A stretch of DNA of 64,000 bases from Candidatus Poribacteria bacterium. Lineage in GTDB: Bacteria > Poribacteria > WGA-4E > WGA-3G. The notes under the pieces were generated by a model. It saw only the letters and a program-made list of their open reading frames with translations. It searched no databases and was not told the DNA's origin. Where the stretch lies: positions 2,688,001 to 2,752,000 of the forward strand of contig OZ240248.1 of the NCBI GenBank assembly GCA_965198235.1. Reading direction: 5' to 3'. Below are positions 15,518 through 52,923 of the stretch, piece by piece; the first letter of the stretch is position 1, and each line of letters starts with the position of its first letter. The position numbers and the translations under genes are program-made.

Positions 15518-15546
15518 ACTATGGGTCTCCTGGGCAAAGAAACACC

Positions 15547-15600
15547 GTTTTTGCTTGGGGTGTTTTTGCTTGGGTGTTTCTGTGGATTTCTGCGGATTTC
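15547..15600. repeat. Self-nested micro-element B (GTTTTTGCTTGGGTATTTCTGCGGATTTC family)
   Basis: A complete 29-nt variant copy (15562-15590) lies between the two halves of another copy. Confidence 0.65.
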
Positions 15601-15752
15601 TTAAGCAAAAACCCTCCACTGTGGGAGGGGTTTGTAACCCCGATTTCTTTCGGGCGACTCCCATTAAAGAAGGGTTTGTGGCGGAAAAAGCGTTTGCAAC
15701 TGTCACGTCTTAACCGACTACTGAAAACTGACAGCCGACAACCAGTAAAAAA

Positions 15753-29380: not shown

Positions 29381-29461
29381 ATGCCGACCTATACAGAAGA
29401 AAATTTTGAAGAGCACATCGAACAAGAATACATGACCCCGGGAGCACGGAGGCGAACATGA
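29381..29461 (+). pseudogene. Relic hsdR 5' end (26-aa mini-ORF)
   Basis: MPTYTEENFEEHIEQ versus the HsdR start MQTYTEQNFEDHIEH; its stop overlaps the ATG of the next ORF. Confidence 0.7.
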
Positions 29462-30692: not shown

Positions 30693-33662
30693 ATGCAGAC
30701 CTATACAGAACAAAATTTTGAAGATCACATCGAACACCACCTAAATCAGTCGGGCTACCGGTCGTTACAATCTACTGACTATGATAAATCCCTCTGCCTG
30801 GTCCCCAATGAGACGCTGCAATTTATTCAGGACACGCAACCGGAAATCTATCGGAGACTGGAACGTCAGTACGGCGGGGAGACACCGCAGAAACTTCTTG
30901 ACCGTGTGAGCAAACAGATTGCGAGTCGTGGGGTGCTGGACGTGCTTCGAAAAGGCGTTAAGGATCGGGGGTGTGATTTTAAGCTAACCTACTTCCGTCC
31001 ATCGAGTGGCATGAATCCCGACCATCAACGGCTCTACGCGCAGAACCGATTCTCCCTGATCCGACAACTGCATTACTCACAGCGGAACGAGAAATCGCTC
31101 GATATGACCCTGTTCCTCAACGGGTTGCCGCTGGTGACGATGGAACTGAAGAACAGCCTCACCGGTCAGGTTGTCACGGATGCGGAAAAACAGTACCGAA
31201 CAGATCGGGATCCGAGAGAGCCGTTGTTCCAATTTAAGCGGTGTCTGGTGCACTTTGCGGTGGGCAACGAGAAGGTTTCAATGACGACCCACTTGCAAGG
31301 GGACGGGACACGCTTCTTTCCGTTTAACAAGGGGATCGAAAACCCGGTGAACCCGAAGGGGCACAAGACCGCTTACCTGTGGGAGGACATCCTACAACCC
31401 GATAATCTGATGGAGTTGATTAACAACTTTATCCATGAGCAGGAGACCGCAGAAAAGGTCTACGACTCCAAAATTGATGCGGTGAGAGATGAGAAGCACC
31501 GAGTGCTCGTTTTCCCGCGATACCATCAGCTTGATGTGATTCGTGAATTGGAAGCGGCTATCGTGAAAGAGGGGGTCGGACATAATTACCTCATCCAACA
31601 CACCACAGGGAGCGGCAAGTCGAACTCCATCGCATGGTTAGCGCATCTGCTAACGCATCTGTATCGCGCTCCGACGGATACAGATCGGATCTTCGACTCC
31701 ATCATCGTTGTAACCGATCGGCGCGTGCTTGACAAGCAGTTGCAGGACACCATCAAGCAGGTAGAACAGGTTGACGGCGTGGTGCATCCCGTTGATGCGA
31801 CTTCGGCGCAACTCAGGGGTTACCTCGAATCCGGCAAAGACATCATCATCTCGACGATTCAGAAGTTCAGTGTGATTGCTGAGGAGATTGGCAAACTCAA
31901 AAGCAAGACCTTCGCCGTGATTATCGACGAAGCACACTCCTCGCAGAGCGGTGAATCTGCAAGGAATCTCAGGATTTCGCTCTCGCAAGGGATTGGGTTA
32001 GGCGTAACGGAAGATTATGCCGATGAAGTATCCGATATGGACGCTCGGATCCTTGAAAAGATGGAACAGCGCAGAATGCAGGATCATATCTCCTATTTCG
32101 GTTTCAGCGGCACACCGAAAAACAAGACCTTAGAACTGTTCGGACGGAAGGACGCAGATGGAAAATTTGTCCCGTTCCACGTCTATTCCATGCGCCAGAG
32201 TATCAGCGAAGGTTTTACACTGGACGTGCTGCAAAACTACACCACCTTTAAGAGGTATTTTGAACTCGTTAAAAGTGTGCCGGAGGATAAAGAGTACGAG
32301 AGGGCGCGGACGCTCCGGACACTGACCGATTACGTTGACCTGCAGCACCACAGTATTGAGACCAAGACCCGGATTATGCTCGAACACTTCACCGCACGAA
32401 CCGCAAAGACGATTGAAGGGAAGGGGCGGGCGATGTTAATCACGCCGTCCCGACTGCACTGCGTCAAATACAAGCAGGAATTCGATAGACAGATGCGGGA
32501 AATGGGGCTTTCCTACGGCTGTCTCGTCGCGTTCAGCGGCACGGTGCACGACACCGACAACGGGCAGGACTATACGGAAAACGGGATGAATGCGTTACCG
32601 CCAAGCGTTTCCATTGCGGACAGCTTCAAGAGTCCTGAGTATCGGATTCTGATTGTGTCGAATAAGTTCCAGACGGGTTTCGATGAACCGCTGCTACAGA
32701 CGATGTACGTCGATAAGCGGTTAGACGGGCTGCAATGTGTCCAGAGTTTGAGCCGCTTGAATCGCGTCGCCACCGGTAAGACGGATACCCTGGTACTCGA
32801 CTTCGTGAATGAACCGAAGCAGGTACAAGAAGCGTTTCAGCAATACTACCAGACCACGATGCTCGCCGAGGAGACCGACCCGAATCGGTTGTATGACCTA
32901 CAGAGTCAGTTGGACGGTTTTGACCTCTACGATGAGCGGATCATTGATGAATTCTGTGAGGTCTTTTATGATACTGATAAACCCGACGAACTTCTACAAG
33001 GCATTCTCGATGGCGTTGTTGAGAGGTGGTCAGAGCTTGAAACAAATGACAGGGAGGAGTTTCGTTCTACCTTGCAAAGTTATATTCGGCTCTACGGGTA
33101 CATCTCACAGTTGATTACCTTCACCGATGTAGCGTTGGAGAAGTTGTATATCTTCGGTCGCAGTCTCAACAAGAAGCTCCCGAAACGGGATCACCCCGAC
33201 CTGCACGATGTCCTCGCGTCTGTGGATTTGGATTCGTTTCGTGTGCAAAGAACCCATGACAGTCTACAACTCTCCCTTGAAGCGCAGGATAGCGAGGTCG
33301 AAGGCATCGGCAGCGGTATCGCTATCATCAGGGACCCTGAGCAGGATTTCCTCTCCAATATTATTGACGCGCTGAACAATGCCTATCAGACAGATTTCAC
33401 AACAGAAGATAAAGTTGACATTGCGACCCTTCACCAAAAAGTGCACGAAAACGAGGAACTTCGGCAGGTGATTGAAGGGGATAATTCGGAGAGCAATAAA
33501 AGGTATAAGTTTGATCGGGTAATTGATGAAATTTTATTGGATTTCGTCAATAATAAACTTGAACTCTATACGAAATTATCGAAACCGGAGATCAACGCGG
33601 ATCTCAAACGTCAACTCTATCAAGCCTACCTTGATCAACCGTCCTCCGCCGTGCGAGGGTGA
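30693..33662 (+). CDS. hsdR: Type I R-M restriction subunit
   Basis: D..LFLNG.P....ELKN, QHTTGSGKS, IIDEAH, FSGTP, TGFDEP, Q.LSRLNR. Confidence 0.95.
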   Translation: MQTYTEQNFEDHIEHHLNQSGYRSLQSTDYDKSLCLVPNETLQFIQDTQPEIYRRLERQYGGETPQKLLDRVSKQIASRGVLDVLRKGVKDRGCDFKLTYFRPSSGMNPDHQRLYAQNRFSLIRQLHYSQRNEKSLDMTLFLNGLPLVTMELKNSLTGQVVTDAEKQYRTDRDPREPLFQFKRCLVHFAVGNEKVSMTTHLQGDGTRFFPFNKGIENPVNPKGHKTAYLWEDILQPDNLMELINNFIHEQETAEKVYDSKIDAVRDEKHRVLVFPRYHQLDVIRELEAAIVKEGVGHNYLIQHTTGSGKSNSIAWLAHLLTHLYRAPTDTDRIFDSIIVVTDRRVLDKQLQDTIKQVEQVDGVVHPVDATSAQLRGYLESGKDIIISTIQKFSVIAEEIGKLKSKTFAVIIDEAHSSQSGESARNLRISLSQGIGLGVTEDYADEVSDMDARILEKMEQRRMQDHISYFGFSGTPKNKTLELFGRKDADGKFVPFHVYSMRQSISEGFTLDVLQNYTTFKRYFELVKSVPEDKEYERARTLRTLTDYVDLQHHSIETKTRIMLEHFTARTAKTIEGKGRAMLITPSRLHCVKYKQEFDRQMREMGLSYGCLVAFSGTVHDTDNGQDYTENGMNALPPSVSIADSFKSPEYRILIVSNKFQTGFDEPLLQTMYVDKRLDGLQCVQSLSRLNRVATGKTDTLVLDFVNEPKQVQEAFQQYYQTTMLAEETDPNRLYDLQSQLDGFDLYDERIIDEFCEVFYDTDKPDELLQGILDGVVERWSELETNDREEFRSTLQSYIRLYGYISQLITFTDVALEKLYIFGRSLNKKLPKRDHPDLHDVLASVDLDSFRVQRTHDSLQLSLEAQDSEVEGIGSGIAIIRDPEQDFLSNIIDALNNAYQTDFTTEDKVDIATLHQKVHENEELRQVIEGDNSESNKRYKFDRVIDEILLDFVNNKLELYTKLSKPEINADLKRQLYQAYLDQPSSAVRG

Positions 33663-33985: not shown

Positions 33986-34039
33986 TAATTGTTTGTTTCC
34001 ATTTGGACGGGATCTTTCACCAATTCACAAGGGGAAAGT

Positions 34040-35077
34040 ATGGGCTATAGCGATGGCAGAAAACAGGTGCAGCGTATCTTGAAAATAATAGATCGCCTCC
34101 AGAAATCAAACGGCATTAGAGTCCGCGATCTGGCGGATTTCTATGACGTTGATATCACCCGCATCTATGAAGACCTGAAAATTATTAAGGAGCTCTACGA
34201 GCTGAAAAAAGATAAGGGGGCTTACTGGATTGAGTCAGAACGTTTGCTACGCTGGCCCAGGATCACAGCCGAAGAGAGTCGCGCCCTAGAACTAGTAATT
34301 ACTGCTTCACCGCTTGCAAAAGAACCGCGTTTTGAGCAATCTCTCAAACGCGTTCTGGAAAAACTCGACACGTCGCTTGCGGAACACATCCAATCGAAAT
34401 TGGAGCAAAATACGCCAATTCAACTCCACAAAGTCGATACAGACGACGAAATTGAGGGACCTCTTCACCTTTCAGAGGATGCACCACCCTATAGTGCCGA
34501 TAGCAATGCTGTTGAGCAGCACTTTCGCGTTTTAGAGGAGGCACTTTACGAGCAAAAGGCGGTGCGGGCGAGTTATCAACCGGGTGGAAAACCGGAGCCT
34601 GTTGTACACCTGCTCCACCCGTATGCCATCTTCTTTCGGAAGGTGGATTGGTATCTTGAGGCGTACTCTAATCTATCAGAACACGCGTCGCTCACCTTCA
34701 AGATCCTCCGTTTTCAAAAGGTTGAATTGACAGAGGAAACGTTTGAGCCCCCTCCGGATTTTTCGTTGGCAGAGAATTTGGATTCTCGATGGGAGCTCTT
34801 TAGCGGTGAACCGCTCAACATCACGCTCAGAATCGCGGCGCACAAAGTGTATTTGGTTGAGGAAAAGCAGCGTCATCCCTCACAAGAGATTGTAGAACGG
34901 TGTGCAGATGGTGCGGTGATTGTCCGTTATGAGGTACCCAAAGAAGAATTCACATTTTGGGTATTGAGTTTAGGGGATGCGGCGGAGGTCTTGGATCCAC
35001 CTGAATTTCGGGCAGAGTTTCAGGAGATTGTCCAGCGGATACATGCGATCTATTCTAACCCAAGTTACTACTTATAA
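34040..35077 (+). CDS. HTH-WYL-WCX transcriptional regulator
   Basis: N-terminal HTH (VRDLADFY.V....IYEDL), HPY....K..WYL.AY, FK..R, LG..AEVL.P...R. Confidence 0.92.
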   Translation: MGYSDGRKQVQRILKIIDRLQKSNGIRVRDLADFYDVDITRIYEDLKIIKELYELKKDKGAYWIESERLLRWPRITAEESRALELVITASPLAKEPRFEQSLKRVLEKLDTSLAEHIQSKLEQNTPIQLHKVDTDDEIEGPLHLSEDAPPYSADSNAVEQHFRVLEEALYEQKAVRASYQPGGKPEPVVHLLHPYAIFFRKVDWYLEAYSNLSEHASLTFKILRFQKVELTEETFEPPPDFSLAENLDSRWELFSGEPLNITLRIAAHKVYLVEEKQRHPSQEIVERCADGAVIVRYEVPKEEFTFWVLSLGDAAEVLDPPEFRAEFQEIVQRIHAIYSNPSYYL

Positions 35078-35894: not shown

Positions 35895-38120
35895 ATGGTT
35901 GACATTGAGGGACACAAATCGAAAATTTTAGCAGCTCACATCGCAGCGACGATGGAAACATCCTCACCTCCAGAGGAACTCGAGGTATTTATACGCTCTC
36001 ACCGCGCCGAAGGTCAGCGTCTCAAACAGTGGTGGGATGATATGGATGCTTTACGCGTCATCCGATACGCCGAACGCCAGTGGAGAATTCACCCTCCAGA
36101 AACCGACCCGAATCCGAATTCAATTGGCAAACCCTCTATGGGGGTAGATGAGGTTGTTCTCTTCGCGGGCAAGGAAATTGGCAAAGTTTACAACTATTAC
36201 CGTACCGTGCTTCCGCAAGAAATGCAGATTCGGCTCGCTTATGACACCTTAATTGAGCGGTTCATAGAATTCCTACAAAGGAAGAAATGTGCTATTCGCC
36301 TTTCTGAAAACCAATTGACGTGTGTCTTATTTATTCCGGATACAGACTTTCCACTCGTAGATGAATGGCAACGGTTCGTCGAATTTGCTTATTCAGAAGA
36401 GGAGTTGTATAAGTCTTTTACACTATTTGTGAACAGCATGAAACTAACTAACAGAGGTTTTGGCTATGTCCACTTTCCATCGGTTACTGAAGCGATGAAG
36501 CTTTGGCAAGCTGCTTTTTATATCGCTACGCTTCGGGAAAGAGTTGTTCGGTACCCTGACAACTATAAGAAAGCCAAAACTGATAAGGAGCGCAGTGTTG
36601 CTGGGAACGCAAATCGCGAAGAGTTAAAATGCCTTTTAACCGAATTACGTGCTGAAGTGCCGAGTCACGCGCGTAGGTTTGATAAGGCGGTAGTGCTTTC
36701 TCACCAATTCAACCGAACTGGTTCAAGCCAATTTTCTTATGGCACAGTAAAGCCTCGCTCAAAGAAAGGGAAAATTGAAGATAAGATTGTTGAAATTCTG
36801 AATGAACCTCTTAGATTCCTAACTTGTCCTCTTGCTCCTGTTGATGAAATAGCACACGATTACGTCCATAGTGCTGGTGATACGGTAAAAAACCGTTGCT
36901 ATGGTTGCGGTAGGCATTTGCCTTCAAAAAGCGAAACTCGCGACTTTAAAGGCAAACTGGAGGCAAACCGATTTGTCTTCTCAGATCCTTCGCAAAGGTT
37001 GCAATCGGGGGGTGGGCAAGCCCAACCCGCTATATGCCTCGACTGTCTTTCAGTCGCTTTTGGTTGCCCCATTAAACTGACAGGGGGTGCGATTATAGTT
37101 CATTTGTCGCCACGAACTGTTGAAGACAACAATCCATTGTCGCGTGAGAAATATCTCCGGATGCTCACACTCGGGGAACTGAATCTGATTGCTGGGCGGT
37201 ATCTACTGATTAAATGTAATGACTTTATGCGCTCAACACCTGTATCCGAAAAAATAGGGCAGGTTCAATATGCACTCTGGCGTATTGCCCAAACACTTCC
37301 AACTGAAGCACTAAGTAAGATGCACTTTACCCTCTTCGCTGATGAATCGAAAATATCGTTGGAAACTCGCCATCTGGTTTGGCTTAGTCACCTCTATGAG
37401 TGTTTTTCACCTCGTATTATCGTGAACGGTAAAGACAATATTCCATTGGGGCAAGCGATCCGGCTCATTCAGAAAGATGAAGTGATTTTAGCTATCTATA
37501 AACTTGTGACAGCAGAGTCTACAGAAGCTAAACAACTCAGCAATTGGTCATACAATGAAAAACGGAGTCTTGAGGAACTCCGCGAAAAGCATTGTACCTT
37601 ACTTGAACAATCCTCAAAAGGAAATAAATTGATGTCGAAACAAGCAGACTTTTATCGGGACATCGCTGCCCTCACTGGGTTAACTTATGCTTATTGCGAC
37701 TACCTCCGCCGTGAGTTAAGAAAAAAGGAGAATACTGGCAAAGTCCAGCCAGGTACTGTCCAGCGAGAAGTCAAAAAACTTATTGAGAAAGTTGTAAATC
37801 CCAGTTTTTTCAACTACGAAGCCTCTGATGTTCTTCCCGGCACACGCGCTACGATGTACTGCAGCGATGATAACTATTTCTGTTACGCAGAGGCGAAGCA
37901 GTTGTTGGAAGGAACACTCAAGTTGGATCTATCCGACCGCGAGGGGCGCACCGACAAAGGACAAGAGTCGATGACTATCTTTTTTGATGACATTCTGAAC
38001 GCCTATGCCGCCTTATCTCAGAAGTACTGCAGGAAGGCACAGCAAAGGAAGTTGTCTTATCAACTCAAACTGAACCTTCACGCGAAGTTCGCATCCCTAT
38101 TCAATCAGAAAGGAGATTAA
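35895..38120 (+). CDS. CRISPR large subunit, Cas10d/Cas8-like, with no recognisable HD nuclease domain
   Basis: First gene of the cas operon, 741 aa; CYGC...CLDC Zn finger; helical C-terminus; strong RBS; no HD/HH motif set at the N-terminus. Confidence 0.7.
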   Translation: MVDIEGHKSKILAAHIAATMETSSPPEELEVFIRSHRAEGQRLKQWWDDMDALRVIRYAERQWRIHPPETDPNPNSIGKPSMGVDEVVLFAGKEIGKVYNYYRTVLPQEMQIRLAYDTLIERFIEFLQRKKCAIRLSENQLTCVLFIPDTDFPLVDEWQRFVEFAYSEEELYKSFTLFVNSMKLTNRGFGYVHFPSVTEAMKLWQAAFYIATLRERVVRYPDNYKKAKTDKERSVAGNANREELKCLLTELRAEVPSHARRFDKAVVLSHQFNRTGSSQFSYGTVKPRSKKGKIEDKIVEILNEPLRFLTCPLAPVDEIAHDYVHSAGDTVKNRCYGCGRHLPSKSETRDFKGKLEANRFVFSDPSQRLQSGGGQAQPAICLDCLSVAFGCPIKLTGGAIIVHLSPRTVEDNNPLSREKYLRMLTLGELNLIAGRYLLIKCNDFMRSTPVSEKIGQVQYALWRIAQTLPTEALSKMHFTLFADESKISLETRHLVWLSHLYECFSPRIIVNGKDNIPLGQAIRLIQKDEVILAIYKLVTAESTEAKQLSNWSYNEKRSLEELREKHCTLLEQSSKGNKLMSKQADFYRDIAALTGLTYAYCDYLRRELRKKENTGKVQPGTVQREVKKLIEKVVNPSFFNYEASDVLPGTRATMYCSDDNYFCYAEAKQLLEGTLKLDLSDREGRTDKGQESMTIFFDDILNAYAALSQKYCRKAQQRKLSYQLKLNLHAKFASLFNQKGD
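37632..38120 (+). CDS. Putative internally translated Cas11-like small subunit (162 aa)
   Basis: In-frame ATG preceded by AAAGGAAA; matches the known internal Cas11 start in types I-B/I-C/I-D. Confidence 0.55.
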   Translation: MSKQADFYRDIAALTGLTYAYCDYLRRELRKKENTGKVQPGTVQREVKKLIEKVVNPSFFNYEASDVLPGTRATMYCSDDNYFCYAEAKQLLEGTLKLDLSDREGRTDKGQESMTIFFDDILNAYAALSQKYCRKAQQRKLSYQLKLNLHAKFASLFNQKGD

Positions 38121-38125
38121 CCAAA

Positions 38126-39100
38126 ATGGCAATTAACGTGAAATCTGGGCTTGAAGATTATTCGGACAAACCGCGCTTCAACTTTGACATTTACGCAATC
38201 CTCGAAGGCGGTCAAGAACTCTTTTTCGGGCACGAAACGCAGGTGAATGTTAACATAGTTGAAACAGTCACTATCGCTTTACCTGATGGTGCCGGTGATG
38301 GTGGCGAACTTGAAAAATGCTATCTCTCTCCAACAAAGCGCCGTGGTGTTGAACGCCGTGCATTGATTTGGGCACCTACCGGAAATGGGTTGTTAGGAGA
38401 TTCCTTGAACTGTGGCATTCCGCATACGTGTAGTAAGGCAGAGTGCCCGATTTGTCGCGTTTTTGGAGGTCTCATCACAACTGCGACTGAAGTCAAGGGC
38501 GAATCCGAAAAACGTCCCGCAACAACCCTCATCGGACGCCTTACCCATAGCGGCGGTGTCGCGATTCAGGAATTGGGACCAGAAGAAAAGCAGCGTGCAA
38601 TGCACCCTTCAATGATACGGAAAGCACCCGAAGCCGATCCGACACCGACTCCCTTTAAGCGAGAATACAATCAACCAGGTCTCCTCTATCCAGTCTACAA
38701 TCACTGTTTGAGTATGACAGAAAGCGAATTCTACGCTGTGGCTTACGCATTCATGAGTGCGCTGGCGCGCTTAGGGGCAGGCAATCCTAAAGGTGTCAAA
38801 ATTCATGATGCCCCGCTTACAAAAGATGAAGATGAACCCTGGATAGTTGTTGACAAGTATCTGTCGCCACTTGGCAAACGGCCTATCATTTCACCCGCTA
38901 TTACGGATGTTGAAACAGCGAAAAGGCAGTTTACAAACGCTATCTTTTCAGTCGCGGGCGTTGAACAAGAACCTGCCAGCGAATTGACTCAGGGAAATTT
39001 CCACCGTTACGTCGGTGATGCCGCCATTGCCAAGTTATCAGAGTATTTGGTCAAGTTTGAAAAGGAGAAACTCAATGTGGATGCTGGAAATGGTGATTAA
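38126..39100 (+). CDS. cas7: Cas7 backbone subunit (Csc2-like)
   Basis: K-R-R-G-V-E-R-R, C...C...CPIC.VFG, LGAG; position in operon. Confidence 0.8.
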   Translation: MAINVKSGLEDYSDKPRFNFDIYAILEGGQELFFGHETQVNVNIVETVTIALPDGAGDGGELEKCYLSPTKRRGVERRALIWAPTGNGLLGDSLNCGIPHTCSKAECPICRVFGGLITTATEVKGESEKRPATTLIGRLTHSGGVAIQELGPEEKQRAMHPSMIRKAPEADPTPTPFKREYNQPGLLYPVYNHCLSMTESEFYAVAYAFMSALARLGAGNPKGVKIHDAPLTKDEDEPWIVVDKYLSPLGKRPIISPAITDVETAKRQFTNAIFSVAGVEQEPASELTQGNFHRYVGDAAIAKLSEYLVKFEKEKLNVDAGNGD

Positions 39101-39857
39101 ACCGACATCAGGGTTAACATTCCGACGGATGCCTTCGTCTATCTTGCATATCAGTACGTACCCGTTTCTACCACCGACGACGATGTCTGGATTTTTACGT
39201 CGATTGAAGATGTTGGAAGTTGGGCATCTACCGGAAACCGCTGTCAAAGATCCAGATTACTATGCCTTGCCTCCCCAACTTTGCACCCTTGGTGCGTATC
39301 CAAAAGTGAATGACTATCGCATTCATACAACAAAGCGTCAAGGAATCAGATCTTTCAACCATAACGCCTTCTCGCGAATTGTTAGGTACCAATCCAAGAA
39401 TGAAGTCTATCAACTTCATACATGGGAATACCTTTTCACGGAACAGCTCATCGGTTATGTGGTTTCGGAAGATGAGGAACTCTTAGGTCAATTGAGAACG
39501 ATTGAAAACTTTGGTTGTAAGATTGGCAAAGAGGGGTACGCTTTTGTAGATCAAATTTGTGGACCTACTCAACTCATTTTGGAACAAGTTAGAGCAAAAC
39601 CCGATACACTCCTCCCTGGAACAGCACTCATTGGAGTTCCATGCGAGGCATTTCCACTGTACCGCTATGCTTGGGAAATAGATGCCTCCGAACACACCAG
39701 CCTTGCACATCCAGAACCGAGTGCTATTGAAGGATTCATCCCATTTGTTGCTGGAGAAATTCGCGGTGAAATTGAACTCGATTATTATACCGATGGGAAC
39801 GTTCATCTTCCGAAGCCCTTCATTGATGAATTGCAGGAAGGAGAGTCAGATGGTTAA
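39075..39857 (+). CDS. cas5: Cas5 subunit
   Basis: TFRR...TYPFLPPTT.SG.L, G.K.GKEG; AAGGAG RBS. Confidence 0.8.
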   Translation: MWMLEMVIKPTSGLTFRRMPSSILHISTYPFLPPTTMSGFLRRLKMLEVGHLPETAVKDPDYYALPPQLCTLGAYPKVNDYRIHTTKRQGIRSFNHNAFSRIVRYQSKNEVYQLHTWEYLFTEQLIGYVVSEDEELLGQLRTIENFGCKIGKEGYAFVDQICGPTQLILEQVRAKPDTLLPGTALIGVPCEAFPLYRYAWEIDASEHTSLAHPEPSAIEGFIPFVAGEIRGEIELDYYTDGNVHLPKPFIDELQEGESDG

Positions 39858-40641
39858 TGCAATGGATATTGTAGAGGTGGGACGGGTTTTCTTTCAATCT
39901 GATAGTGGACCTGATGTAAAAAAAGTAATAGTTCTTACATTAGATAGCCACGTTGAAAATGTCGTCACATTGGTGAAAAATTTTAAAAGAGATTTCTATC
40001 CAGCCTTCAAACAGAGTCAGAAATCGACTCGCGACCTTCTAATACGCGCTGCCGAGAAGCACGACGACGCAAAACCTGAGACCTTTCGCGTAACCTACCG
40101 AAGTTACAAGGAAAACGGACATAAATCTCTCGGTTATTCCTTTGCAGGACACCGCTTTAGAGTTTCCGATCCTGATCGTTATGTTGAACTTCTAATCCGT
40201 CTACATCACGAATTCTCCGTTGAAGGTATTGTCAAAGCACAAGCGGAACTCAAGGCACAAACGGGATCCGCCAATGAAAAGTTTAAAAACTTTCCTTTTG
40301 ATCTTTACATCTTAGAGATGTGTGATCAGATAGAGGCAGAACTTGAGACTTACGCTTTCACAGACGATGTTCAACCGCGGGTTTTTATGGATTTTCACTC
40401 CCGCCAGCGTGAGGATAGAATAATTGAAGTCAGCCCTTATCCATTTGATAGCGAGGATATCCCTCTATCGCTTGCATATTATGAATTCGATGTGTGCGAA
40501 GAACATTGTGGTCAAATATCTAAGGCTTTGATAGAGGATAATCACGGGAAAGGAGTTAACTTTCTCCGTGAAATGATTGTTAATGCACACAACAAAGCGG
40601 AATGTCAACGAAAGGAGATGATTCTATGCAAAGCGCAATAG
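39850..40641 (+). CDS. Stand-alone Cas3'' HD nuclease
   Basis: Ordered metal-ligand set: SH-V..V, KHDDAK, GHRF, LHHE, MCDQ; own RBS. Confidence 0.75.
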   Translation: MVNAMDIVEVGRVFFQSDSGPDVKKVIVLTLDSHVENVVTLVKNFKRDFYPAFKQSQKSTRDLLIRAAEKHDDAKPETFRVTYRSYKENGHKSLGYSFAGHRFRVSDPDRYVELLIRLHHEFSVEGIVKAQAELKAQTGSANEKFKNFPFDLYILEMCDQIEAELETYAFTDDVQPRVFMDFHSRQREDRIIEVSPYPFDSEDIPLSLAYYEFDVCEEHCGQISKALIEDNHGKGVNFLREMIVNAHNKAECQRKEMILCKAQ

Positions 40642-42413
40642 AGGCTTATCAAAATCTTGCAAAATTCAAGCCAAATCCGATGCAAGAAGAACTTTTCTCT
40701 CGCATCGCAAACGAATATCTGAATCCTGCGCTTCTGCTCAAAGCACCCACAGGGAGCGGGAAAACGGAGGCGGTTCTCATTCCGAGCCTTAACGCCGAAC
40801 GTAGGCTTTTCCTCATTTTTCCTTCACACAGCCTCGTTGATGATCAGATTGAGCGGTGTGAAAAGTATCTCCAGTGTGCCTCCGAAAAAACAGGCAGGTC
40901 TTATGCCCTTGTAATTGACACCGGCGCGGAATCTGTTCGCACTGTTTTTAAGGATGGCGAAGCATTAGAAAAAGGGAGACGTCATCTCTACGATGGCGAT
41001 GTAATTCTCACAACATTTGACAAATTCCTGTACCGATTTTTCGGGTTTGGTGAACCTAAAAAATCTTATATTTTCCCCTTCCGTATTCACCATAGCCAAC
41101 GTCGAAATCTTTTCTGTTTTGATGAAGTACATGCTTACGATCAAGTTGCGTTTGTCAATTTTCAACGTCTTGTCAAAGCACTCTACACAGCAAATCTGGA
41201 TATGGTTGTTATGACAGCAACAATGCCTGACACCTACCAGAAGGAGTTAAATTTCTTGGATAGGGTTGATTACATTACAGGGGAAAATCAACTGAAACTG
41301 GAAAGGTGGCAGGAAAAAGAACAAAATCGACAGTATCCCGATAAGAAAATTAAACATATTGCTGCAAAGCCAAAAGAGGTTAGAAACGAAATCTGTGCCT
41401 ATGTATCTCAGCAGTATGAGTCAAGTAAGCGGACTATTGTCACCATTGAAACGATTGAGAACCTCATTCCGGTTTACCAGTATATGAAAGAGCGGAATCG
41501 CGGGGAGAACATTTTTCTTTACCACGGTCGGCTTACCAATCCACAACGCAAGAAAATTTATTGTAAACTAAAGGAGCGTGAAAACAACGATAAAGGGTAC
41601 TTGCTTTTCACAACGAGCGCTATTGAGGTGGGATGTGACCTTGACGCACATCTGCTTATCACGGAATTGTGCAATCCTGATTCGCTCATCCAACGTGCAG
41701 GAAGGTGCAATCGCAAGGGGCAGATTCCTAACGCTGAAATCGTCATTGTAGGTAACAAAATTCCCTCTTTTCTCTCTATCCTTTCTAAGGAGAAAACAGA
41801 AAAATATCTTGAGAAATTGCAGCAGCAGAGTGGAGGCAACTTCAACCCGGACGACATCCTTGTACTCATGAAATACGCGCCACACTCCGACTATAGAGCG
41901 GAAGTGCTCTTTGACATGTTATATGAATACGTCTACGAAGCCCGATTGGAGAACAAACCTTTGCACGATAGAGGGCTTGTGATTACACGGAGTTTTGAAC
42001 CCTCACTAACCCTCACAACCAAAGTGCTACAGGAGTCTGATAACCACCGACCGGAAAATGCTGTAAGTGTCTCTATTCAAAGTTGCATCACTAAGGGTGG
42101 AGAAGGTGAGTCTGTTAATCAAGATTTTAAGGTATACCAGCGATTTTATGATGAGCATCGCGAGGAATTCAAATTTGTTCAGCTTAATAGGGGCGGAAGT
42201 ATTTATTTTAAAGAACTCTTTGTTGAGGTGCCTGAATGTTACTTTTCTGAAGAGTTAGGCTATGTTGAACCGCCCAAAGTGTTTGAAGACCGCAGCACTC
42301 GGGGGTACCGGCGGAATTTTGTTTATCACAGAACTGAAGATGGCAAGCCTAAAGATATCTGGTTACACTATTTGAAAGATTTAGAGAAACCTCAGTCTGA
42401 AGATGAAGCCTAA
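40626..42413 (+). CDS. cas3: Cas3' helicase (no HD domain)
   Basis: APTGSGKT, DEVH, MTAT, YHGR, EVG.D, QRAGRCNR; AAGGAG RBS before 40626. Confidence 0.9.
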   Translation: MQSAIEAYQNLAKFKPNPMQEELFSRIANEYLNPALLLKAPTGSGKTEAVLIPSLNAERRLFLIFPSHSLVDDQIERCEKYLQCASEKTGRSYALVIDTGAESVRTVFKDGEALEKGRRHLYDGDVILTTFDKFLYRFFGFGEPKKSYIFPFRIHHSQRRNLFCFDEVHAYDQVAFVNFQRLVKALYTANLDMVVMTATMPDTYQKELNFLDRVDYITGENQLKLERWQEKEQNRQYPDKKIKHIAAKPKEVRNEICAYVSQQYESSKRTIVTIETIENLIPVYQYMKERNRGENIFLYHGRLTNPQRKKIYCKLKERENNDKGYLLFTTSAIEVGCDLDAHLLITELCNPDSLIQRAGRCNRKGQIPNAEIVIVGNKIPSFLSILSKEKTEKYLEKLQQQSGGNFNPDDILVLMKYAPHSDYRAEVLFDMLYEYVYEARLENKPLHDRGLVITRSFEPSLTLTTKVLQESDNHRPENAVSVSIQSCITKGGEGESVNQDFKVYQRFYDEHREEFKFVQLNRGGSIYFKELFVEVPECYFSEELGYVEPPKVFEDRSTRGYRRNFVYHRTEDGKPKDIWLHYLKDLEKPQSEDEA

Positions 42414-42530
42414 CTCCCACCCTCGGAACCGCTTGAAACAGAAAACCGTAAAACGGCGGAATCAGTCCTTTCGCCTCCAGAAGAGGGTGAACAGTTGAGC
42501 CTATTTGAGCATTGATTAAGGAGACCATCC

Positions 42531-43361
42531 ATGCCCATCAGCACACTCATCTCACTCATACCGGAAACCGATGTAACACTCCGCCCAACGATGGGACACC
42601 ATGCACACGCCGCGTTTCTCGCGATCATTCGGAAAAGCGACCCGAACCTCGCAAAAACGCTCCACGCACAATCGGCGCAAAAACCGTTTACGGTTTCACC
42701 ACTCATCGCAGCCGCAAAAAAGCGCGATAATCAGCTGCACATCATGGCAGGCACCGAGTGCAAACTCCGATTCACGTTTCTTGAGGATACGCTCTTTACA
42801 GCCTTCGGGCGCGCTTTTTTAACATTTGAATTGCCCACGATTCGACTCGGAGAAGCGACCTTTCAGGTGAAGCAATGGGTTTCACACGCCACGGAGGAGC
42901 GGAGTTGGAGCGGGAGCGCAACGTACGCAGAACTCATCCAATCCGCAAAAACCGATACACAAATGTCTTTCCGATTCTATTCACCGACAGCCTTTCGACG
43001 GCTGACACCGCGCGGGCAGCAAACCCGTAGCGACGCGTACCCCGATCTCGTGCGCTGCTATCAGAGCTGGGTCAATAAGTGGAATGCCTTCGCACCCATA
43101 AAACTTGACAGAACCGAAATCCTCGCCTTCATTACGGAGTATGGACAGGTGACGAGCATAACAACGAAATCACGAGCACTTAACTTCGGAAAGCATACCG
43201 AGATCGGGTGGGTTGGCACGTATGCGTGTGTCTTCTATCCAGAAGATTCGCTTGACCCCGATCTGCGCCGGGCAGTCAACTGCTTAGCAGCTTTCGCTTT
43301 CTACTGCGGCACCGGCTACAAAACCACCATGGGAATGGGACAGACGAGGCGGGTTGATTGA
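42531..43361 (+). CDS. cas6: CRISPR RNA processing endoribonuclease Cas6
   Basis: KPFTVSPL, F.SPTAFR, G-loop CGTGYKTTMGMGQ. Confidence 0.92.
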   Translation: MPISTLISLIPETDVTLRPTMGHHAHAAFLAIIRKSDPNLAKTLHAQSAQKPFTVSPLIAAAKKRDNQLHIMAGTECKLRFTFLEDTLFTAFGRAFLTFELPTIRLGEATFQVKQWVSHATEERSWSGSATYAELIQSAKTDTQMSFRFYSPTAFRRLTPRGQQTRSDAYPDLVRCYQSWVNKWNAFAPIKLDRTEILAFITEYGQVTSITTKSRALNFGKHTEIGWVGTYACVFYPEDSLDPDLRRAVNCLAAFAFYCGTGYKTTMGMGQTRRVD

Positions 43362-43381
43362 GACTGAAGGAGCACTGAACG

Positions 43382-45019
43382 ATGTCAGAAACCTATATAC
43401 CACTTTCACAGATAAACACTTACGTCTTCTGTCCTCGGCGATTCTACTATGAATCTGTTGAAGGGCATCAGGTCGTTAATGACCACATCGAAGAAGGCAA
43501 AATCAAGCACGAACATGTCCATACAGCAGTGACAGACCGGAAAAAAGGAGATAAGACTATCTCTCGACGGCAATACCTTGCTTCGGATACACTCGGCGTG
43601 TCTGGCTACACCGACCTCGTTGAGGAGAAAGACGGCATCCCATACCCTGTTGAATTCAAAAAGGCGGGTATGGGGAATTGGCGTAATGATCAGGTTCAAC
43701 TCTGTTTGCAAGGACTCTTACTGGAGGAGAAAACAGGGATTTCAATTCCGCACGGCTATGTCTTTTACATCGGCTCAAAACGGCGGCGGAAGGTTCCGTT
43801 TGACAAGGAACTCCGTGAGGCAACACTCCGGTATGTAGCGGAGGCACACTCGCTACTTGACTCACGTAAAATTCCGAAACCCATTCACGATAATCGATGC
43901 AATGGCTGTAGCGTCCGCCCGATTTGTCTACCTGATGAGATCGCTTATCTCCACGAATTAGATGAGCGACCAAAACGTATCAAACCCGCGCTCGGCATTG
44001 ATAATGTCCTATACATCGATGAACAGGGGTGTGCTATCAAAAAGACCGGAGAACGCATCCTCGTCGTTAAAGAGGACGAAATTCTCCGTGATATTCCATT
44101 AATCCATCTCGGTCAGGTAGTCATCTCTGGCAACGTTAACCTCACCACACCAGCAATGCAAACACTCTTGCACGAAGGGATTCCAGTTGTTTTCCTCTCC
44201 GCCTATGGACGATACCATGGCGCATTGACACCACAAGTGTCTCGGAATTCTCTTTTACGGAGCGCGCAGCATAGAGTTGCAAATAGTCCGGACGCGTGCC
44301 TTGATCTCTCAAAAGCGTTTGTTCATGGGAAATTGGCGAACATGCGGACGATGCTGCAACGTCGGAAATGGCAGGCGACAGACGCTACAGATTCGGCATT
44401 GGAACCTTTGTTGACTAACATTAAAGCGATACAAGCAATGGAAAAGCGTATTGGTAAGTCAACTGAACTTCCAGAGTTATTGGGAATCGAAGGAAACGCT
44501 TCTGCGGCGTATTTTGGAGCATTCGGTTTCATGCTGAAAGAGGAAATGGGTTTTGATTTCCAGCGGCGGAGTCGGCGTCCACCAGCGGATGCGACGAACG
44601 CACTACTGAGTTTCGCTTATTCATTACTGACAGCCGATCTCATGTCTGCAATCCAGACGGTCGGGTTAGACCCTTATGTCGGTTTCTTTCACCAGATCAA
44701 GTATGGTAAACCGTGCCTCGCACTTGATTTGATGGAGGAATTCCGTCCCATTATTGCGGATTCAGTTGTGATTACACTCATCAACAACCGCCGTATCAAG
44801 CCTACAGATTTCACGCAATCCCACGGGGGCTGGTATCTAAAGGAGAATTGTCGGAAAGTGTTTTACGCCGCATACGAGACGCGGAAAAATGAGACCATTA
44901 CACACCCTGTTTTTAAATATAAGCTCACATTTCGCCGGGCAATGGAATTACAGGTACGCTTGCTGGCGAAATATCTCACAGGCGAAATTGAACAGTATAC
45001 ACCGTTGACGGTTCGGTAG
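43382..45019 (+). CDS. cas1: Cas4-Cas1 fusion
   Basis: Cas4: CPRR, D.VE...PVEFK, QLC.Q, CNGCS...IC; Cas1: GIEG, NALLSFAY, GFFH, LALDLMEEFRP..AD. Confidence 0.93.
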   Translation: MSETYIPLSQINTYVFCPRRFYYESVEGHQVVNDHIEEGKIKHEHVHTAVTDRKKGDKTISRRQYLASDTLGVSGYTDLVEEKDGIPYPVEFKKAGMGNWRNDQVQLCLQGLLLEEKTGISIPHGYVFYIGSKRRRKVPFDKELREATLRYVAEAHSLLDSRKIPKPIHDNRCNGCSVRPICLPDEIAYLHELDERPKRIKPALGIDNVLYIDEQGCAIKKTGERILVVKEDEILRDIPLIHLGQVVISGNVNLTTPAMQTLLHEGIPVVFLSAYGRYHGALTPQVSRNSLLRSAQHRVANSPDACLDLSKAFVHGKLANMRTMLQRRKWQATDATDSALEPLLTNIKAIQAMEKRIGKSTELPELLGIEGNASAAYFGAFGFMLKEEMGFDFQRRSRRPPADATNALLSFAYSLLTADLMSAIQTVGLDPYVGFFHQIKYGKPCLALDLMEEFRPIIADSVVITLINNRRIKPTDFTQSHGGWYLKENCRKVFYAAYETRKNETITHPVFKYKLTFRRAMELQVRLLAKYLTGEIEQYTPLTVR

Positions 45020-45044
45020 AATTATGGTGAATTATAAAAATAAT

Positions 45045-45243
45045 AGGACTTACGCATTCTCTCTTAAAGTCCCCCTGATAAGGGGCGGGGAATGCCATAC
45101 GGGGAATGCCATACGGCATTCATACCGTTGATTCGCATTCATACCCGGGGAAGCCCACATGGGCTTCATACCGTTGATTCTGATTCTTTAGGGGGTTAAA
45201 TACAACGAAATATGCCCTTTTCTGTTCAATTTGCGTAAGTCCT
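45045..45243. mobile_element. MITE-like element between cas1 and cas2 carrying nested 35-nt micro-element C
   Basis: AGGACTTACGCA...TGCGTAAGTCCT TIRs; three copies of CGGGGAA...ATACCGTTGATTC at 45086-45186. Confidence 0.65.
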
Positions 45244-45415
45244 GAAATAAATAGACACTTCAGCGAACGATGGATGAGAATGCGTCCTTGCGCCCCTGTC
45301 TCTCCTCCCTTCTACCCTTCCGTTGGATGAGAGTATACGGGCGTAGAGAAGCATATTCTCTTTCATCCTTGTCACTATGTGAATTTCAGGAAGGAAAATT
45401 AATGAGGAATCACTA

Positions 45416-45688
45416 ATGCATTACACAGTTGCTTACGATATTACAAATGACAAACGACGGAATAGGGTTGCTAAAATACTGAAGGATTTTGGGACCCGCA
45501 TCCAATATAGTGTTTTTGAATGTGACACGGATCGGCGCGCACTACTACGCTTGCAGGACCGATTGAAAAAGACAATCAATTTGGGAGAGGATACAATCAC
45601 CTTCTACCATCTCTGTGCGGCGTGTGAAAAACAGATTGACCGGATAGGCATAAAAAAAGGGCTTGACAAACAGTCGTATATCGTGTAG
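45416..45688 (+). CDS. cas2: Cas2
   Basis: VAYDI..DKRR, G.RIQYSVFEC. Confidence 0.95.
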   Translation: MHYTVAYDITNDKRRNRVAKILKDFGTRIQYSVFECDTDRRALLRLQDRLKKTINLGEDTITFYHLCAACEKQIDRIGIKKGLDKQSYIV

Positions 45689-45886
45689 AGTTAGGTATCA
45701 ACAAATTTCTGTGCGCGAAAGCGGACCGAAAAACCTGTAACCCTCACAGAAAGGCGGGAAACCTTATGATTCGTGCTTTCACGCTTTCCTTAGAATATTT
45801 CTGGCGGCTGGGGTTAGGACAAAATACCTCGCTCGCGGAAATACCCATAATTGAGGCACGTCTGGTATGGCTTCCGGTGGGGCGGA
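45663..45886 (+). promoter_or_regulatory. CRISPR leader with promoter
   Basis: TTGACA-17-TAGAGT overlapping the cas2 3' end; non-coding up to repeat 1. Confidence 0.7.
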
Positions 45887-48800
45887 CTTGAAACGAAAAG
45901 CATCTCGATTACGAGATTGAAACATGTTCTGGTCAATTGCCCATCGTAGCGAAACCCGTAAGGACTTGAAACGAAAAGCATCTCGATTACGAGATTGAAA
46001 CTGAAAAAGGATTCTGTACTCTTAATTCTGGAGAGAAATCGCTTGAAACGAAAAGCATCTCGATTACGAGATTGAAACTAAGTTTAAGTGCCTTCTGCCA
46101 ACCGGGGAATTGGCTTGAAACGAAAAGCATCTCGATTACGAGATTGAAACCTTCATGGGACATGTGATGCATATAGTGACGTATGTGCTTGAAACGAAAA
46201 GCATCTCGATTACGAGATTGAAACAAAAGCATAATCAAAAGTATCATAAGGAAACGGAATTTTCTTGAAACGAAAAGCATCTCGATTACGAGATTGAAAC
46301 AAGATGTGATGTTGATTCAAATAGACGAATTTCCCTATGCTTGAAACGAAAAGCATCTCGATTACGAGATTGAAACATGTGTATCCTACAGCACCACCAT
46401 AAGGAGTAGGTAGACTTGAAACGAAAAGCATCTCGATTACGAGATTGAAACAAGAAAATATCAAAAAATGGGGCGAGTGCCCAATCTCACTTGAAACGAA
46501 AAGCATCTCGATTACGAGATTGAAACAATGAGGTATTCAAGACCGGGTGTTTCTGAGACGATAACCTTGAAACGAAAAGCATCTCGATTACGAGATTGAA
46601 ACGAGACGATAGCAACTCCAGTCAGCGACAACCCGTTAGGCTTGAAACGAAAAGCATCTCGATTACGAGATTGAAACTGAAACCGACTTGTCTGCGTTGC
46701 GGACGTTGAAACCCGCTTCCTTGAAACGAAAAGCATCTCGATTACGAGATTGAAACTAAGAATAACTTCTACGTCAAGACAAATACTCAGTTCCTTGAAA
46801 CGAAAAGCATCTCGATTACGAGATTGAAACAAGATGATATGAGTATTCGCCGGAAATTGCGGGCGGGCTTGAAACGAAAAGCATCTCGATTACGAGATTG
46901 AAACAATATCATATTTCTGATGATACAATCGTCATCAGAAAACTTGAAACGAAAAGCATCTCGATTACGAGATTGAAACAGGGTACTGAACGCAGTGTCC
47001 GACTTCGCTTCGTATTCTTGAAACGAAAAGCATCTCGATTACGAGATTGAAACCCATATACTTCTATGTCGCTGAAATTGGCATTGCGATCTATACCTTG
47101 AAACGAAAAGCATCTCGATTACGAGATTGAAACGAAGGATTAGGACGGGTAGGGGACAGCGTAAATATACGCTTGAAACGAAAAGCATCTCGATTACGAG
47201 ATTGAAACTGAACACTACGTGCCAGCGTCACGATTGACACTAAAGGAGCCTTGAAACGAAAAGCATCTCGATTACGAGATTGAAACTCGATCGTCGTTAT
47301 CCGAAAGCATGCTTGCCGGCGGTTTCTTACTTGAAACGAAAAGCATCTCGATTACGAGATTGAAACATTGGAATGATGCCGCGACGGAGTTGTTGAAATC
47401 TCTTGAAACGAAAAGCATCTCGATTACGAGATTGAAACACCCGTAATGCTTCAATGACCCTATGGGGTCATCCCTACTTGAAACGAAAAGCATCTCGATT
47501 ACGAGATTGAAACTTGATTTTGACTTCAGGTATCGGTTTGGTTCGGATTTCTTGAAACGAAAAGCATCTCGATTACGAGATTGAAACTCTTGCTAACTTC
47601 CCATCATGGGAGCAGTTTTTGCGGACTTGAAACGAAAAGCATCTCGATTACGAGATTGAAACTTGGGAAAAGCAGGCAGCGTTACAGGGGAAGACTTTAC
47701 TTGAAACGAAAAGCATCTCGATTACGAGATTGAAACCTGAATCGGGGATCACTTTATCATCAAAGCCTCTTTTTCTTGAAACGAAAAGCATCTCGATTAC
47801 GAGATTGAAACGAAGCATTTGGAACACTAACGAAATGGGATGCATTGCGCTTGAAACGAAAAGCATCTCGATTACGAGATTGAAACATGCTAATGATACG
47901 ATCATGCTACAACGAAACCAACTTGAAACGAAAAGCATCTCGATTACGAGATTGAAACGATTACTGCTGCGAGGTCTATGTATTGGTTGTTTTTGTCGCT
48001 TGAAACGAAAAGCATCTCGATTACGAGATTGAAACTACAGTCAACTCTATGCGGTAACTCACGCCAAAATCGACTTGAAACGAAAAGCATCTCGATTACG
48101 AGATTGAAACCTCAAGGTATCGCAGGAAGTCGGTGTCGGTGTCAAGCTTGAAACGAAAAGCATCTCGATTACGAGATTGAAACAAAACCGGTAGCGACAT
48201 GGAAGCGGAAGCGGACGAAACTTGAAACGAAAAGCATCTCGATTACGAGATTGAAACTGGTAAGTTACCCGATACGTGTCCAACTGATACGACTCCACTT
48301 GAAACGAAAAGCATCTCGATTACGAGATTGAAACCCCGCGTCAATATCCGCCGCGCTTGCCATGCTGTCCTTGAAACGAAAAGCATCTCGATTACGAGAT
48401 TGAAACAAAAGAAAGAAATAACCTCATCAATGAGATGGCAGACTTGAAACGAAAAGCATCTCGATTACGAGATTGAAACAAACACGGGGAAAAGGCTCTC
48501 CCAGTGGCGGCCGTCTTCTAATCTTGAAACGAAAAGCATCTCGATTACGAGATTGAAACACTATTGAGTTCGGGTCTGAGGGGTGGAATATCATCTCACT
48601 TGAAACGAAAAGCATCTCGATTACGAGATTGAAACTATGGCAAGATTTAGAGATTCAGATAGACCCTTATACGCTTGAAACGAAAAGCATCTCGATTACG
48701 AGATTGAAACGACAGAGCGATAAACTTGATACCTTCCCAAGCGATTTGTCTTGAAACGAAAAGCATCTCGATTACGAGATTGAAACACATCTTCAGTCTG

Positions 48801-52899: not shown

Positions 52900-52923
52900 A
52901 GCGTCTACAAAAGGAGTGTTCCG

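Follow-up and report, generated by a model that had tools for sequence, protein, structure and literature searches.

A Poribacteria CRISPR-Cas locus with a split cas3 and a fused cas4-cas1 as a probable architectural variant of the Thermus-type "I-B" family

To which branch of type I CRISPR-Cas does a locus belong when its large subunit lacks an HD domain, its HD nuclease is encoded by a gene of its own, and its cas4 and cas1 genes are fused? This combination is found in a 64,000-nucleotide (nt) stretch of a Candidatus Poribacteria genome (assembly GCA_965198235.1, contig OZ240248.1, positions 2,688,001 to 2,752,000 of the forward strand), hereafter the window. Eight co-directional genes on the + strand, at 35895-45688, encode a large subunit, Cas7, Cas5, an HD protein, the Cas3' helicase, Cas6, a Cas4-Cas1 fusion and Cas2. 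An earlier reading of the same DNA (the original prediction) gave this gene order, which coordinates and curated models confirm, and proposed an atypical I-D-like system, a mosaic or intermediate between subtypes. Our analysis suggests a different answer: the effector module very probably belongs to the Thermus-type "I-B" family, which is known, named and assayed, and the window holds a Poribacteria member of that family with a different architecture.

The three effector subunits carry this placement. The large subunit (741 amino acids (aa); 35895-38120), Cas7 (324 aa; 38126-39100) and Cas5 (about 260 aa; 39075-39857) match PADLOC models PDLC01527 ("Cas8b"; 388.5 bits, residues 306-738), PDLC01388 ("Cas7b"; 358.4 bits) and PDLC01389 ("Cas5b"; 263.5 bits), respectively. 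The last of these begins at residue 21 of a GTG-initiated open reading frame (ORF), for which 39075, 39081 and 39090 are candidate starts. PADLOC holds one such narrow model per effector subunit, and all three are labelled CAS-I-B. The corresponding proteins of Thermus thermophilus HB8 fit them full-length (1017, 473 and 465 bits); hence, the models are the Thermus-type family's own. The hidden Markov model (HMM) scans that had been suggested as a check therefore place the trio with I-B profiles and with no Cas10d model, in a family with its own profiles rather than in an unclassified mosaic. The large subunit fits PDLC01527 only from residue 306, and its N-terminal third has diverged. None of the window's large subunit, Cas7, Cas5 and HD proteins has a match in NCBIfam or Pfam.

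In pairwise comparison with Thermus, the large subunit and a 766-aa HB8 protein are 32% identical over 401 aa (E 2e-49), and a further piece aligns at the N-terminus; identity is 45% for Cas5 (E 6e-54) and 38% between Cas3' and the helicase part of Thermus Cas3 (E 3e-105). Searching annotated plasmids with Cas7 (tblastn) retrieved 15 T. thermophilus megaplasmids at 48-49% identity (49% to the HB8 locus), two Picosynechococcus plasmids at 55%, and a Rubrobacter gene annotated cas7d at 24% (E 4e-5). With Cas5 as the query, even at E up to 10, the same search retrieved no canonical I-B Cas5 from plasmids. The large subunit has 203 homologues, and all 20 family Cas7 proteins compared match PDLC01388.

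The HB8 locus, on plasmid pTT27, consists of a WYL gene, genes for "hypothetical proteins" of 766, 293 and 263 aa, cas3 (817 aa) and cas6, with cas4, cas1 and cas2 divergent. It has homologues of the window's large subunit, Cas7, Cas5, Cas3 helicase, HD domain and Cas6, and the two loci have PADLOC profiles in common. Both have a WYL gene upstream and the order large subunit-cas7-cas5-cas3-cas6, and the Thermus array adjoining cas6 has the same repeat end as the window, ATTGAAAC. The differences are in architecture. Thermus HB8 has a single fused 817-aa Cas3 with the HD domain N-terminal, whereas cas3'' and cas3' are separate in the window; Thermus cas4, cas1 and cas2 are separate genes on the opposite strand, whereas the window has a co-directional cas4-cas1 fusion. 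The split cas3 and fused cas4-cas1 are thus an architectural difference from Thermus, not a loss of homology.

What is known of the Thermus system? Its cas6 is identical to PDB entry 4c98, "CAS6B", and one report states that TtCas6B is Cas6-1, "at the type I-B locus" (PMC12102369); hence, the pTT27 locus is the experimentally studied "type I-B" system. The same report describes a Cascade of >400 kDa purified through Cas8b, mature CRISPR RNA (crRNA) of ~70 nt, binding of Cas6 to Cas5b, co-purification of Cas3 with Cascade without an R-loop, as in types I-A and I-G, and ATP-dependent degradation of the non-target strand (PMC12102369). Interference and genome editing with a TTC protospacer-adjacent motif (PAM) are described in a second report (PMC10989782). 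Both purification and assays of the family thus come from T. thermophilus HB27 (PMC12102369, PMC10989782).

Is the split of cas3 natural? The free-standing Cas3'' HD nuclease (263 aa) is encoded at 39850-40641 and the Cas3' superfamily 2 helicase (595 aa from the ATG at 40626) at 40626-42413, so that the first 16 nt of the helicase gene coincide, in a different frame, with the end of the HD gene. A second in-frame ATG lies at 40602. Such an arrangement could arise if a normal fused cas3 had been broken by a frameshift in sequencing or assembly, or by a recent pseudogenising mutation: one indel could join the two overlapping ORFs, and fused forms are present in relatives. The original prediction had itself named a frameshift as the finding that would overturn it. 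However, each half has its own Shine-Dalgarno sequence, with AAGGAG upstream of the HD ATG at 39850 and AGGAG 8 nt upstream of the helicase ATG, for which a ribosome-binding site had been predicted. Furthermore, the HD protein has 247 homologues, almost all of ~263 aa.

Conservation of the split also argues against a frameshift. We collected 43 related loci by scanning one genome per species with a single HD motif pattern, which biases the sample to the HD sub-branch of the window (it missed Thermus, for example). These loci span about eight phyla; 22 are titled Poribacteria, and 20 others come from Armatimonadetes, Chloroflexota, Acidobacteriota, Tectomicrobia, Polyangiales, "Deltaproteobacteria" and Desulfobacterales. 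By phmmer synteny, HD is a separate ORF in 41 of the 43, in independent assemblies, and is fused in L032 and L036; family cas7 and cas5 lie directly upstream in all except L024 (42/43). One locus, L034, divides HD and helicase unusually, into 370 and 543 aa. Of the 43 loci, 31 have an upstream WYL ORF, as do the Thermus and Picosynechococcus loci. The 46-row Cas7 tree places the window inside a 24-row Poribacteria clade (support of 100 in the Shimodaira-Hasegawa-like approximate likelihood-ratio test) in which every member is split, whereas fused forms are scattered over the tree, with four changes, at least two of them forced by well-supported branches. A profile search of 1.84 billion cluster representatives returned 79 HD clusters, mostly free-standing and 230-280 aa long; 12 of them are fused proteins of 836-959 aa, with the HD domain N-terminal and a Cas3 helicase as the remainder. 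Given the free-standing HD ORF in 41 of the 43 loci, we conclude that the split is natural. A frameshift is effectively refuted, and we give it almost no credence. As a separate observation, the annotation of T. thermophilus HB27 divides cas3 into a 600-aa gene and a 219-aa "hypothetical protein" (L047:10606-13055), and HB8 has a single 817-aa gene (L045:11606-14059).

As had been predicted, the HD protein has the full HD motif series, with H34, H71-D72, K75, H101, H119-H120 and D159 unchanged in all of 28 sequences (29-78% identity). For profile-profile comparison (hhalign), we used family profiles (22 sequences each for the large subunit, Cas7 and Cas5) against eight annotated I-D loci, one Haloferax I-B locus (the sole canonical I-B reference) and a Rubrobacter variant, in addition to the Thermus-type proteins. 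The HD profile aligns with residues 3-237 of Thermus Cas3 (99.95%, E 1.4e-38) and with the N-terminus of the fused Picosynechococcus Cas3 (E 5.6e-39). In contrast, there is no specific similarity to the HD domain of Cas10d (E 0.26) and no specific link to that of Haloferax Cas3 (E 0.018). On these sequence comparisons, the HD protein is the detached N-terminal domain of a Thermus-family Cas3, not a Cas10d-type HD. Since HD and helicase are fused in relatives (Thermus, Picosynechococcus and two loci from metagenome-assembled genomes (MAGs), L032 and L036), we infer that Cas3'' and Cas3' would act as one enzyme.

The helicase itself scores 160.8 bits against TIGR01587 (cas3_core; cut-off 102.45). 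Its closest solved relatives are chains 7r2k_A and 7tr8_A (E 6e-19), which we take to be type I-A. Its best PADLOC model, PDLC01196, is labelled "Cas3d" and fits the Rubrobacter helicase full-length (1181.8 bits), whereas the canonical I-D model TIGR03158 gives the window's Cas3' only 63.8 bits, under the cut-off of 69.1. Judged from these fits, the "Cas3d" label is misleading: PDLC01196 is a Rubrobacter-type model, not one of cyanobacterial I-D. A split of Cas3 into helicase and HD polypeptides is also a feature of type I-A. However, we found no Cas8a, no Csa5 match and no small-subunit gene, and the effectors match no I-A model in PADLOC.

Downstream of cas3', Cas6, the pre-crRNA endoribonuclease (276 aa; 42531-43361), scores 62.2 bits against TIGR01877 (cut-off 58.65) and matches Pfam Cas6_N and Cas6; its closest solved relative is the Thermus protein, 4c98 (E 1.3e-21). 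The Cas4-Cas1 fusion (545 aa; 43382-45019) comprises Pfam Cas4 at residues 9-183 and Cas1 at 210-499, and its match to NF049935 (cas4g_cas1g; 626.8 bits, cut-off 560) bears out the predicted likeness to type I-G. Cas2 (90 aa; 45416-45688; TIGR01573 60.2 bits, cut-off 24.5; Pfam 8.4e-25) follows after a non-coding gap of 396 bp (45020-45415). Type I-G has Cas3g, Cas8g, a Cas5-Cas6 fusion and a Cas4-Cas1 fusion, and only the last has a counterpart in the window. The window's Cas3' reaches 141.3 bits against a Cas3g cut-off of 400, its HD is separate (N-terminal in fused relatives) rather than C-terminal, and cas5 and cas6 are separate genes.

A chimera could account for such a mixture: the effector module of one lineage would have been joined to an acquired I-G-type adaptation module and to I-D-type Cas6 and Cas2, with the 396-bp gap as the recombination seam. 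The best models do differ by gene (effector I-B, "Cas3d", Cas6d, Cas4g/Cas1g, Cas2d), and the adaptation genes are otherwise arranged in relatives, with separate, divergent cas4 and cas1 in Thermus and a cas1 annotated cas1d in Picosynechococcus. However, model labels of Cas1, Cas2 and Cas6 do not define a subtype, and the "Cas3d" label of PDLC01196 is misleading, as described above. Moreover, the same co-linear eight-gene order recurs across phyla, so any shuffling must be old and not particular to the window's locus. We therefore consider a chimera quite improbable. Among the 32 related loci with these genes, 27 have cas4-cas1 as a single ORF; of the other five, L025, L032 and L035 carry cas4 and cas1 separately, L009 has two pieces and L036 a fragment. 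The L009 case, from a Poribacteria locus, has both cas7 and cas4-cas1 in two pieces ~1.1-1.2 kb apart (L009:6915-9251 and 13512-16497), which suggests insertions. The gap before cas2 ranges from about 0 to 640 bp in relatives. In the window it holds a short tandem repeat (14 bp; 45086-45116), and pieces of 38-42 nt from it are also present, at 87-93% identity, between genes of L004 and L009; the gap may represent a small repetitive element.

A derivation from type I-D deserves closer attention. The large subunit would then be a Cas10d without its HD domain, and the whole Thermus-type family an I-D offshoot in which the HD has moved next to, or onto, Cas3'. Type I-D loci such as that on Synechocystis pSYSA have in common with the window a stand-alone Cas3' helicase and a WYL regulator, and non-cyanobacterial (archaeal and clostridial) I-D loci have the same order of large subunit, cas7, cas5 and cas3'. 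Cas7 provides the clearest link. Eight of 20 family Cas7 proteins weakly match the PADLOC Cas7d model, and four of 20 weakly match DevR. The window's own Cas7, which has a conserved Cys cluster (C96, C102, C107, C110), misses the Csc2 models of NCBIfam, Pfam and PADLOC at E up to 0.01, but the family Cas7 profile aligns with an eight-sequence Cas7d profile at 29% and E 5.9e-4 over 136 columns, against E 0.17-0.65 for cross-family controls. A protein atlas places Cas7 nearest Csc2 clusters (0.96, 13/30 hits; recognition 2844), with DevR at 0.87. The Rubrobacter Cas7 acts as a bridge, aligning both with the family Cas7 profile (98.0%, E 1.7e-13) and with Cas7d (96.7%, E 3.9e-10). Cas7 is thus credibly, though remotely, Csc2-like, and to that extent the predicted Csc2-like Cas7 stands.

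The large subunit is harder to place. C335/C338 and C381/C384 (CxxC-x42-CxxC) are invariant in 20 diverse homologues, and there is no invariant His among these 20 and hence no HD motif set, as had been predicted; nor does the protein match any HD model in Pfam, NCBIfam or PADLOC. All 22 family large subunits carry a CxxC-x38-46-CxxC pair, as do the large subunit of Rubrobacter and all five non-cyanobacterial Cas10d proteins examined; three cyanobacterial Cas10d proteins, the Chondrinema protein and Haloferax Cas8b lack it. The position of the pair is nearly the same in a 765-aa HD-less clostridial Cas10d (339/381) as in the window (335/381). When the large subunit is compared with Cas10d by hhalign, the top local alignment also falls on this finger, at E 0.053 against 0.41 for a reversed control, which is not significant. 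Structure comparison with Cas10d and Cas8, another check that had been suggested, gave no significant match: the top two Foldseek matches are Cas10d (7sba_I, E 0.044; 6thh_C, E 0.3), but neither is significant and both come from a model with a predicted local distance difference test score (pLDDT) of 60. The protein atlas instead places the large subunit nearest Cst1-type CXXC_CXXC Cas8 clusters (0.96, 19/30), at a recognition of 1740 that is below the reliable range.

Two other loci bear on the fate of the HD domain in type I-D. In a Clostridium plasmid I-D locus (L050:2075-4983), a free-standing 188-aa HD gene precedes the HD-less Cas10d of 765 aa; against one fused Cas10d model of 859 positions, the former covers 6-175 and the latter 189-859. 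A genuine I-D locus can therefore have a free HD, although there it lies upstream of the large subunit, whereas the HD of the window, of the Cas3 N-terminal kind, is encoded between cas5 and cas3'. The L050 cas3' is annotated in two pieces. In an Armatimonadetes MAG (L024:2207-13502), a canonical I-D set (cas10d with HD, cas7d, cas5d and I-D cas3') lies directly upstream of the family's HD-cas3'-cas6. L024 lacks the family's own large subunit, cas7 and cas5, and is either two abutting systems or a hybrid.

Despite these links, no Cas10d, Csc1 or Csc2 model is significant for the window's proteins. The large subunit has no HMM match to Cas10d in NCBIfam or PADLOC and no significant hhalign similarity (E 0.12 with eight sequences, E 0.053 with five); Cas5 matches no Cas5d/Csc1 model (hhalign E 0.056) and is not Csc1-like. 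The family profiles found nothing by hhalign against single Synechocystis I-D proteins or the clostridial HD-less Cas10d. What type I-D typically has, namely a Cas10d with an N-terminal HD, a Cas5d/Csc1 and a TIGR03158-type Cas3', was not found in the window, and the window's cas4-cas1 is fused, unlike that of I-D. The large subunit is therefore not demonstrably a Cas10d, and the leads on its fold conflict and are all weak. We regard a derivation from I-D as unlikely. The description "atypical I-D-like" is only partly right. Cas7 is remotely Csc2-like, and the large subunit has its finger where non-cyanobacterial Cas10d has it, though not significantly so; there is no demonstrable Cas10d, Cas5 is not Csc1-like, and HD is of the Cas3 type.

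A Rubrobacter radiotolerans plasmid carries a sister variant (L048:1727-11069). By hhalign its effector trio is homologous to that of the window (large subunit 96.4%, E 1.2e-9; Cas7 as above; Cas5 93.8%, E 1.7e-7), and the best PADLOC model of the window's Cas3' is the Rubrobacter helicase model. Its gene order differs: helicase, a 313-aa protein, "Cas8b" (PDLC01203), a 149-aa protein between large subunit and Cas7, the cas7d-annotated gene, "Cas5b" (PDLC01198), a CARF gene and cas6. The putative HD protein of this variant is only weakly similar to that of the window (66%, E 5.5e-5), and its large subunit and Cas5 match no I-D profile by hhalign. The 149-aa gene is a possible cas11. Within this one locus, the Prokaryotic Genome Annotation Pipeline names the Cas7 "cas7d", and PADLOC labels the large subunit and Cas5 as I-B.

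Several observations weigh against assignment to a Thermus-type "I-B" family, or against what the assignment conveys. Identity to the Thermus proteins is only 32-49%. The "I-B" label rests on convention: hhalign detects no similarity between the family and Haloferax Cas8b (E 0.42), Cas7b (E 0.13) or Cas5b (E 0.008), and neither a Csh1/Cst1-related Cas8b nor a Cas7 of the DevR/Csh2/Cst2 kind, as in canonical I-B, was found by comparison with this one canonical reference. None of 20 family large subunits matches Pfam PF09706, the Cas_CXXC_CXXC family of Cst1-type Cas8, at E up to 1. The AlphaFold2 model of the large subunit is poor (pLDDT 60), the HD model (pLDDT 76.7) has no significant PDB neighbour in Foldseek, with HD-fold proteins at best at a probability of 0.25-0.33, and a PDB sequence search matched no solved structure to the profiles of the large subunit, Cas7 and Cas5; the HD profile likewise had no meaningful match there. 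The locus has no separate cas11 gene. The C-terminal third of the large subunit is helical and a possible Cas11-like part, and an in-frame ATG at 37632 (M580), with AGGA ~12 nt upstream, would yield a 162-aa helical C-terminal product. This start is kept in 23 of 26 close relatives but in only 4 of 22 sequences across the family; an internally translated Cas11-like product is thus possible but poorly supported. Finally, the window and related loci yielded no protospacer.

How does the locus present as a working system? Type I in general is indicated by a cas3_core match above the cut-off, invariant HD motifs and a complete effector trio. The CRISPR array (45887-50140, + strand) contains 56 exact copies of a 37-bp repeat, against none expected by chance, and ends in a degenerate 35-nt repeat at 50106-50140. 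It holds 55 spacers between perfect repeats, or 56 if the terminal degenerate repeat is counted, in agreement with the 56 originally predicted. They are 35-49 nt long and all different, with no duplicates; none matches elsewhere in the window, nor in related loci beyond 16-nt chance matches. The repeat, which carries ATTGAAAC at its 3' end, forms a hairpin of 6 bp (-6 kcal/mol, z -2.1). A 198-bp leader (45689-45886, + strand), defined by position only, separates cas2 from the first repeat. A promoter-like match lies at 45663-45691, in a region not enriched for such matches (30 found, 24.3 expected), and no Rfam family reaches its gathering score within the window. Invariant HD residues, helicase, Cas1, Cas4, Cas2 and Cas6 matches above curated cut-offs, identical repeats and unique spacers are signs of an intact, active locus. 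As predicted, it is apparently an intact, working, DNA-targeting type I CRISPR-Cas system in a Poribacteria-like genome.

The analysis itself shows which genes the locus holds, that their motifs are intact, that they are homologous to the Thermus system and that the split is conserved; the likely steps of its action follow by homology to that system. Cas6 would cut each repeat at the hairpin base, leaving crRNA with an 8-nt AUUGAAAC 5' handle, and would stay bound. The large subunit, several Cas7, Cas5 and Cas6 would assemble on the crRNA to form Cascade, which would recognise PAM-flanked double-stranded DNA and form an R-loop. The displaced strand would then be degraded by Cas3, produced in this case as separate nuclease (Cas3'', HD) and helicase (Cas3') chains. 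Together with Cas2, the Cas4-Cas1 fusion would install new spacers. The WYL-domain protein encoded upstream (33989-35077, + strand; helix-turn-helix, WYL and WCX domains; Pfam WCX 7.4e-14, WYL 3.9e-11; PADLOC WYL 1.3e-29) probably regulates transcription; its annotated start is TTG, and the true start may lie further downstream.

A type I restriction-modification system lies directly upstream (hsdM 25678-27423, hsdS 28085-29377, hsdR 30693-33662), and together with the CRISPR locus it forms a defence island. An AAA-ATPase-like gene located between hsdS and hsdR extends over two overlapping frames (29458-30192 and 29918-30679) and may be frameshifted. Downstream of the array are two adjacent SPFH/Band-7 genes (51931-53886) and a DDE transposase gene (57159-58502, - strand; Pfam DDE_Tnp_1 1e-24).

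What is the significance of the locus? Taken singly it is ordinary, a healthy CRISPR-Cas system that forms part of a defence island in a genome resembling those of sponge symbionts. It is an architectural variant, with split cas3 and fused cas4-cas1, of a known, characterised family. The original prediction had asked whether a variant of the same architecture was already described, and the answer is in two parts: the family is described, whereas our literature search found no description of the split cas3 with fused cas4-cas1, the Poribacteria form. The accessible text of the 2025 classification does not mention the variant, and its large-subunit dendrogram data may already place the family (PMC12669027). 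The 43 related loci, in Poribacteria, Chloroflexota, Acidobacteriota, Armatimonadota, Tectomicrobia, Myxococcota and Thermodesulfobacteriota, make up a widespread unnamed branch. NCBI names the family's large subunit, Cas7 and HD protein "hypothetical protein" among the matches listed and NCBIfam has no match for them; hence, typing pipelines may miss or mislabel the branch.

The absence of detectable similarity to the Haloferax I-B effectors, together with a Csc2-like Cas7, suggests that the Thermus mechanism may not carry over to other I-B systems, nor the reverse. A broader and more speculative reading, which we would not favour at present, is that the whole family (the Poribacteria branch, Thermus, Picosynechococcus and the Rubrobacter variant) is misfiled under I-B and represents a separate lineage that keeps steps of a proposed route from I-D to other type I systems. 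It would then combine a Cas7 backbone of the Csc2-like kind with a large subunit left over from a Cas10d that has lost its HD but kept the zinc finger, and its HD would occur in three states: free-standing beside an HD-less Cas10d, as in clostridial I-D; free-standing directly upstream of cas3', as in 41 of the 43 loci; and fused to Cas3', as in Thermus, Picosynechococcus, L032 and L036. A transfer of the HD domain from large subunit to helicase is proposed in a review (PMC10212523). If the misfiled-lineage reading is true, the family would make that proposal testable with living intermediates. The naturally split and fused forms of Cas3 also provide a matched pair for studying the effect of HD-helicase fusion.

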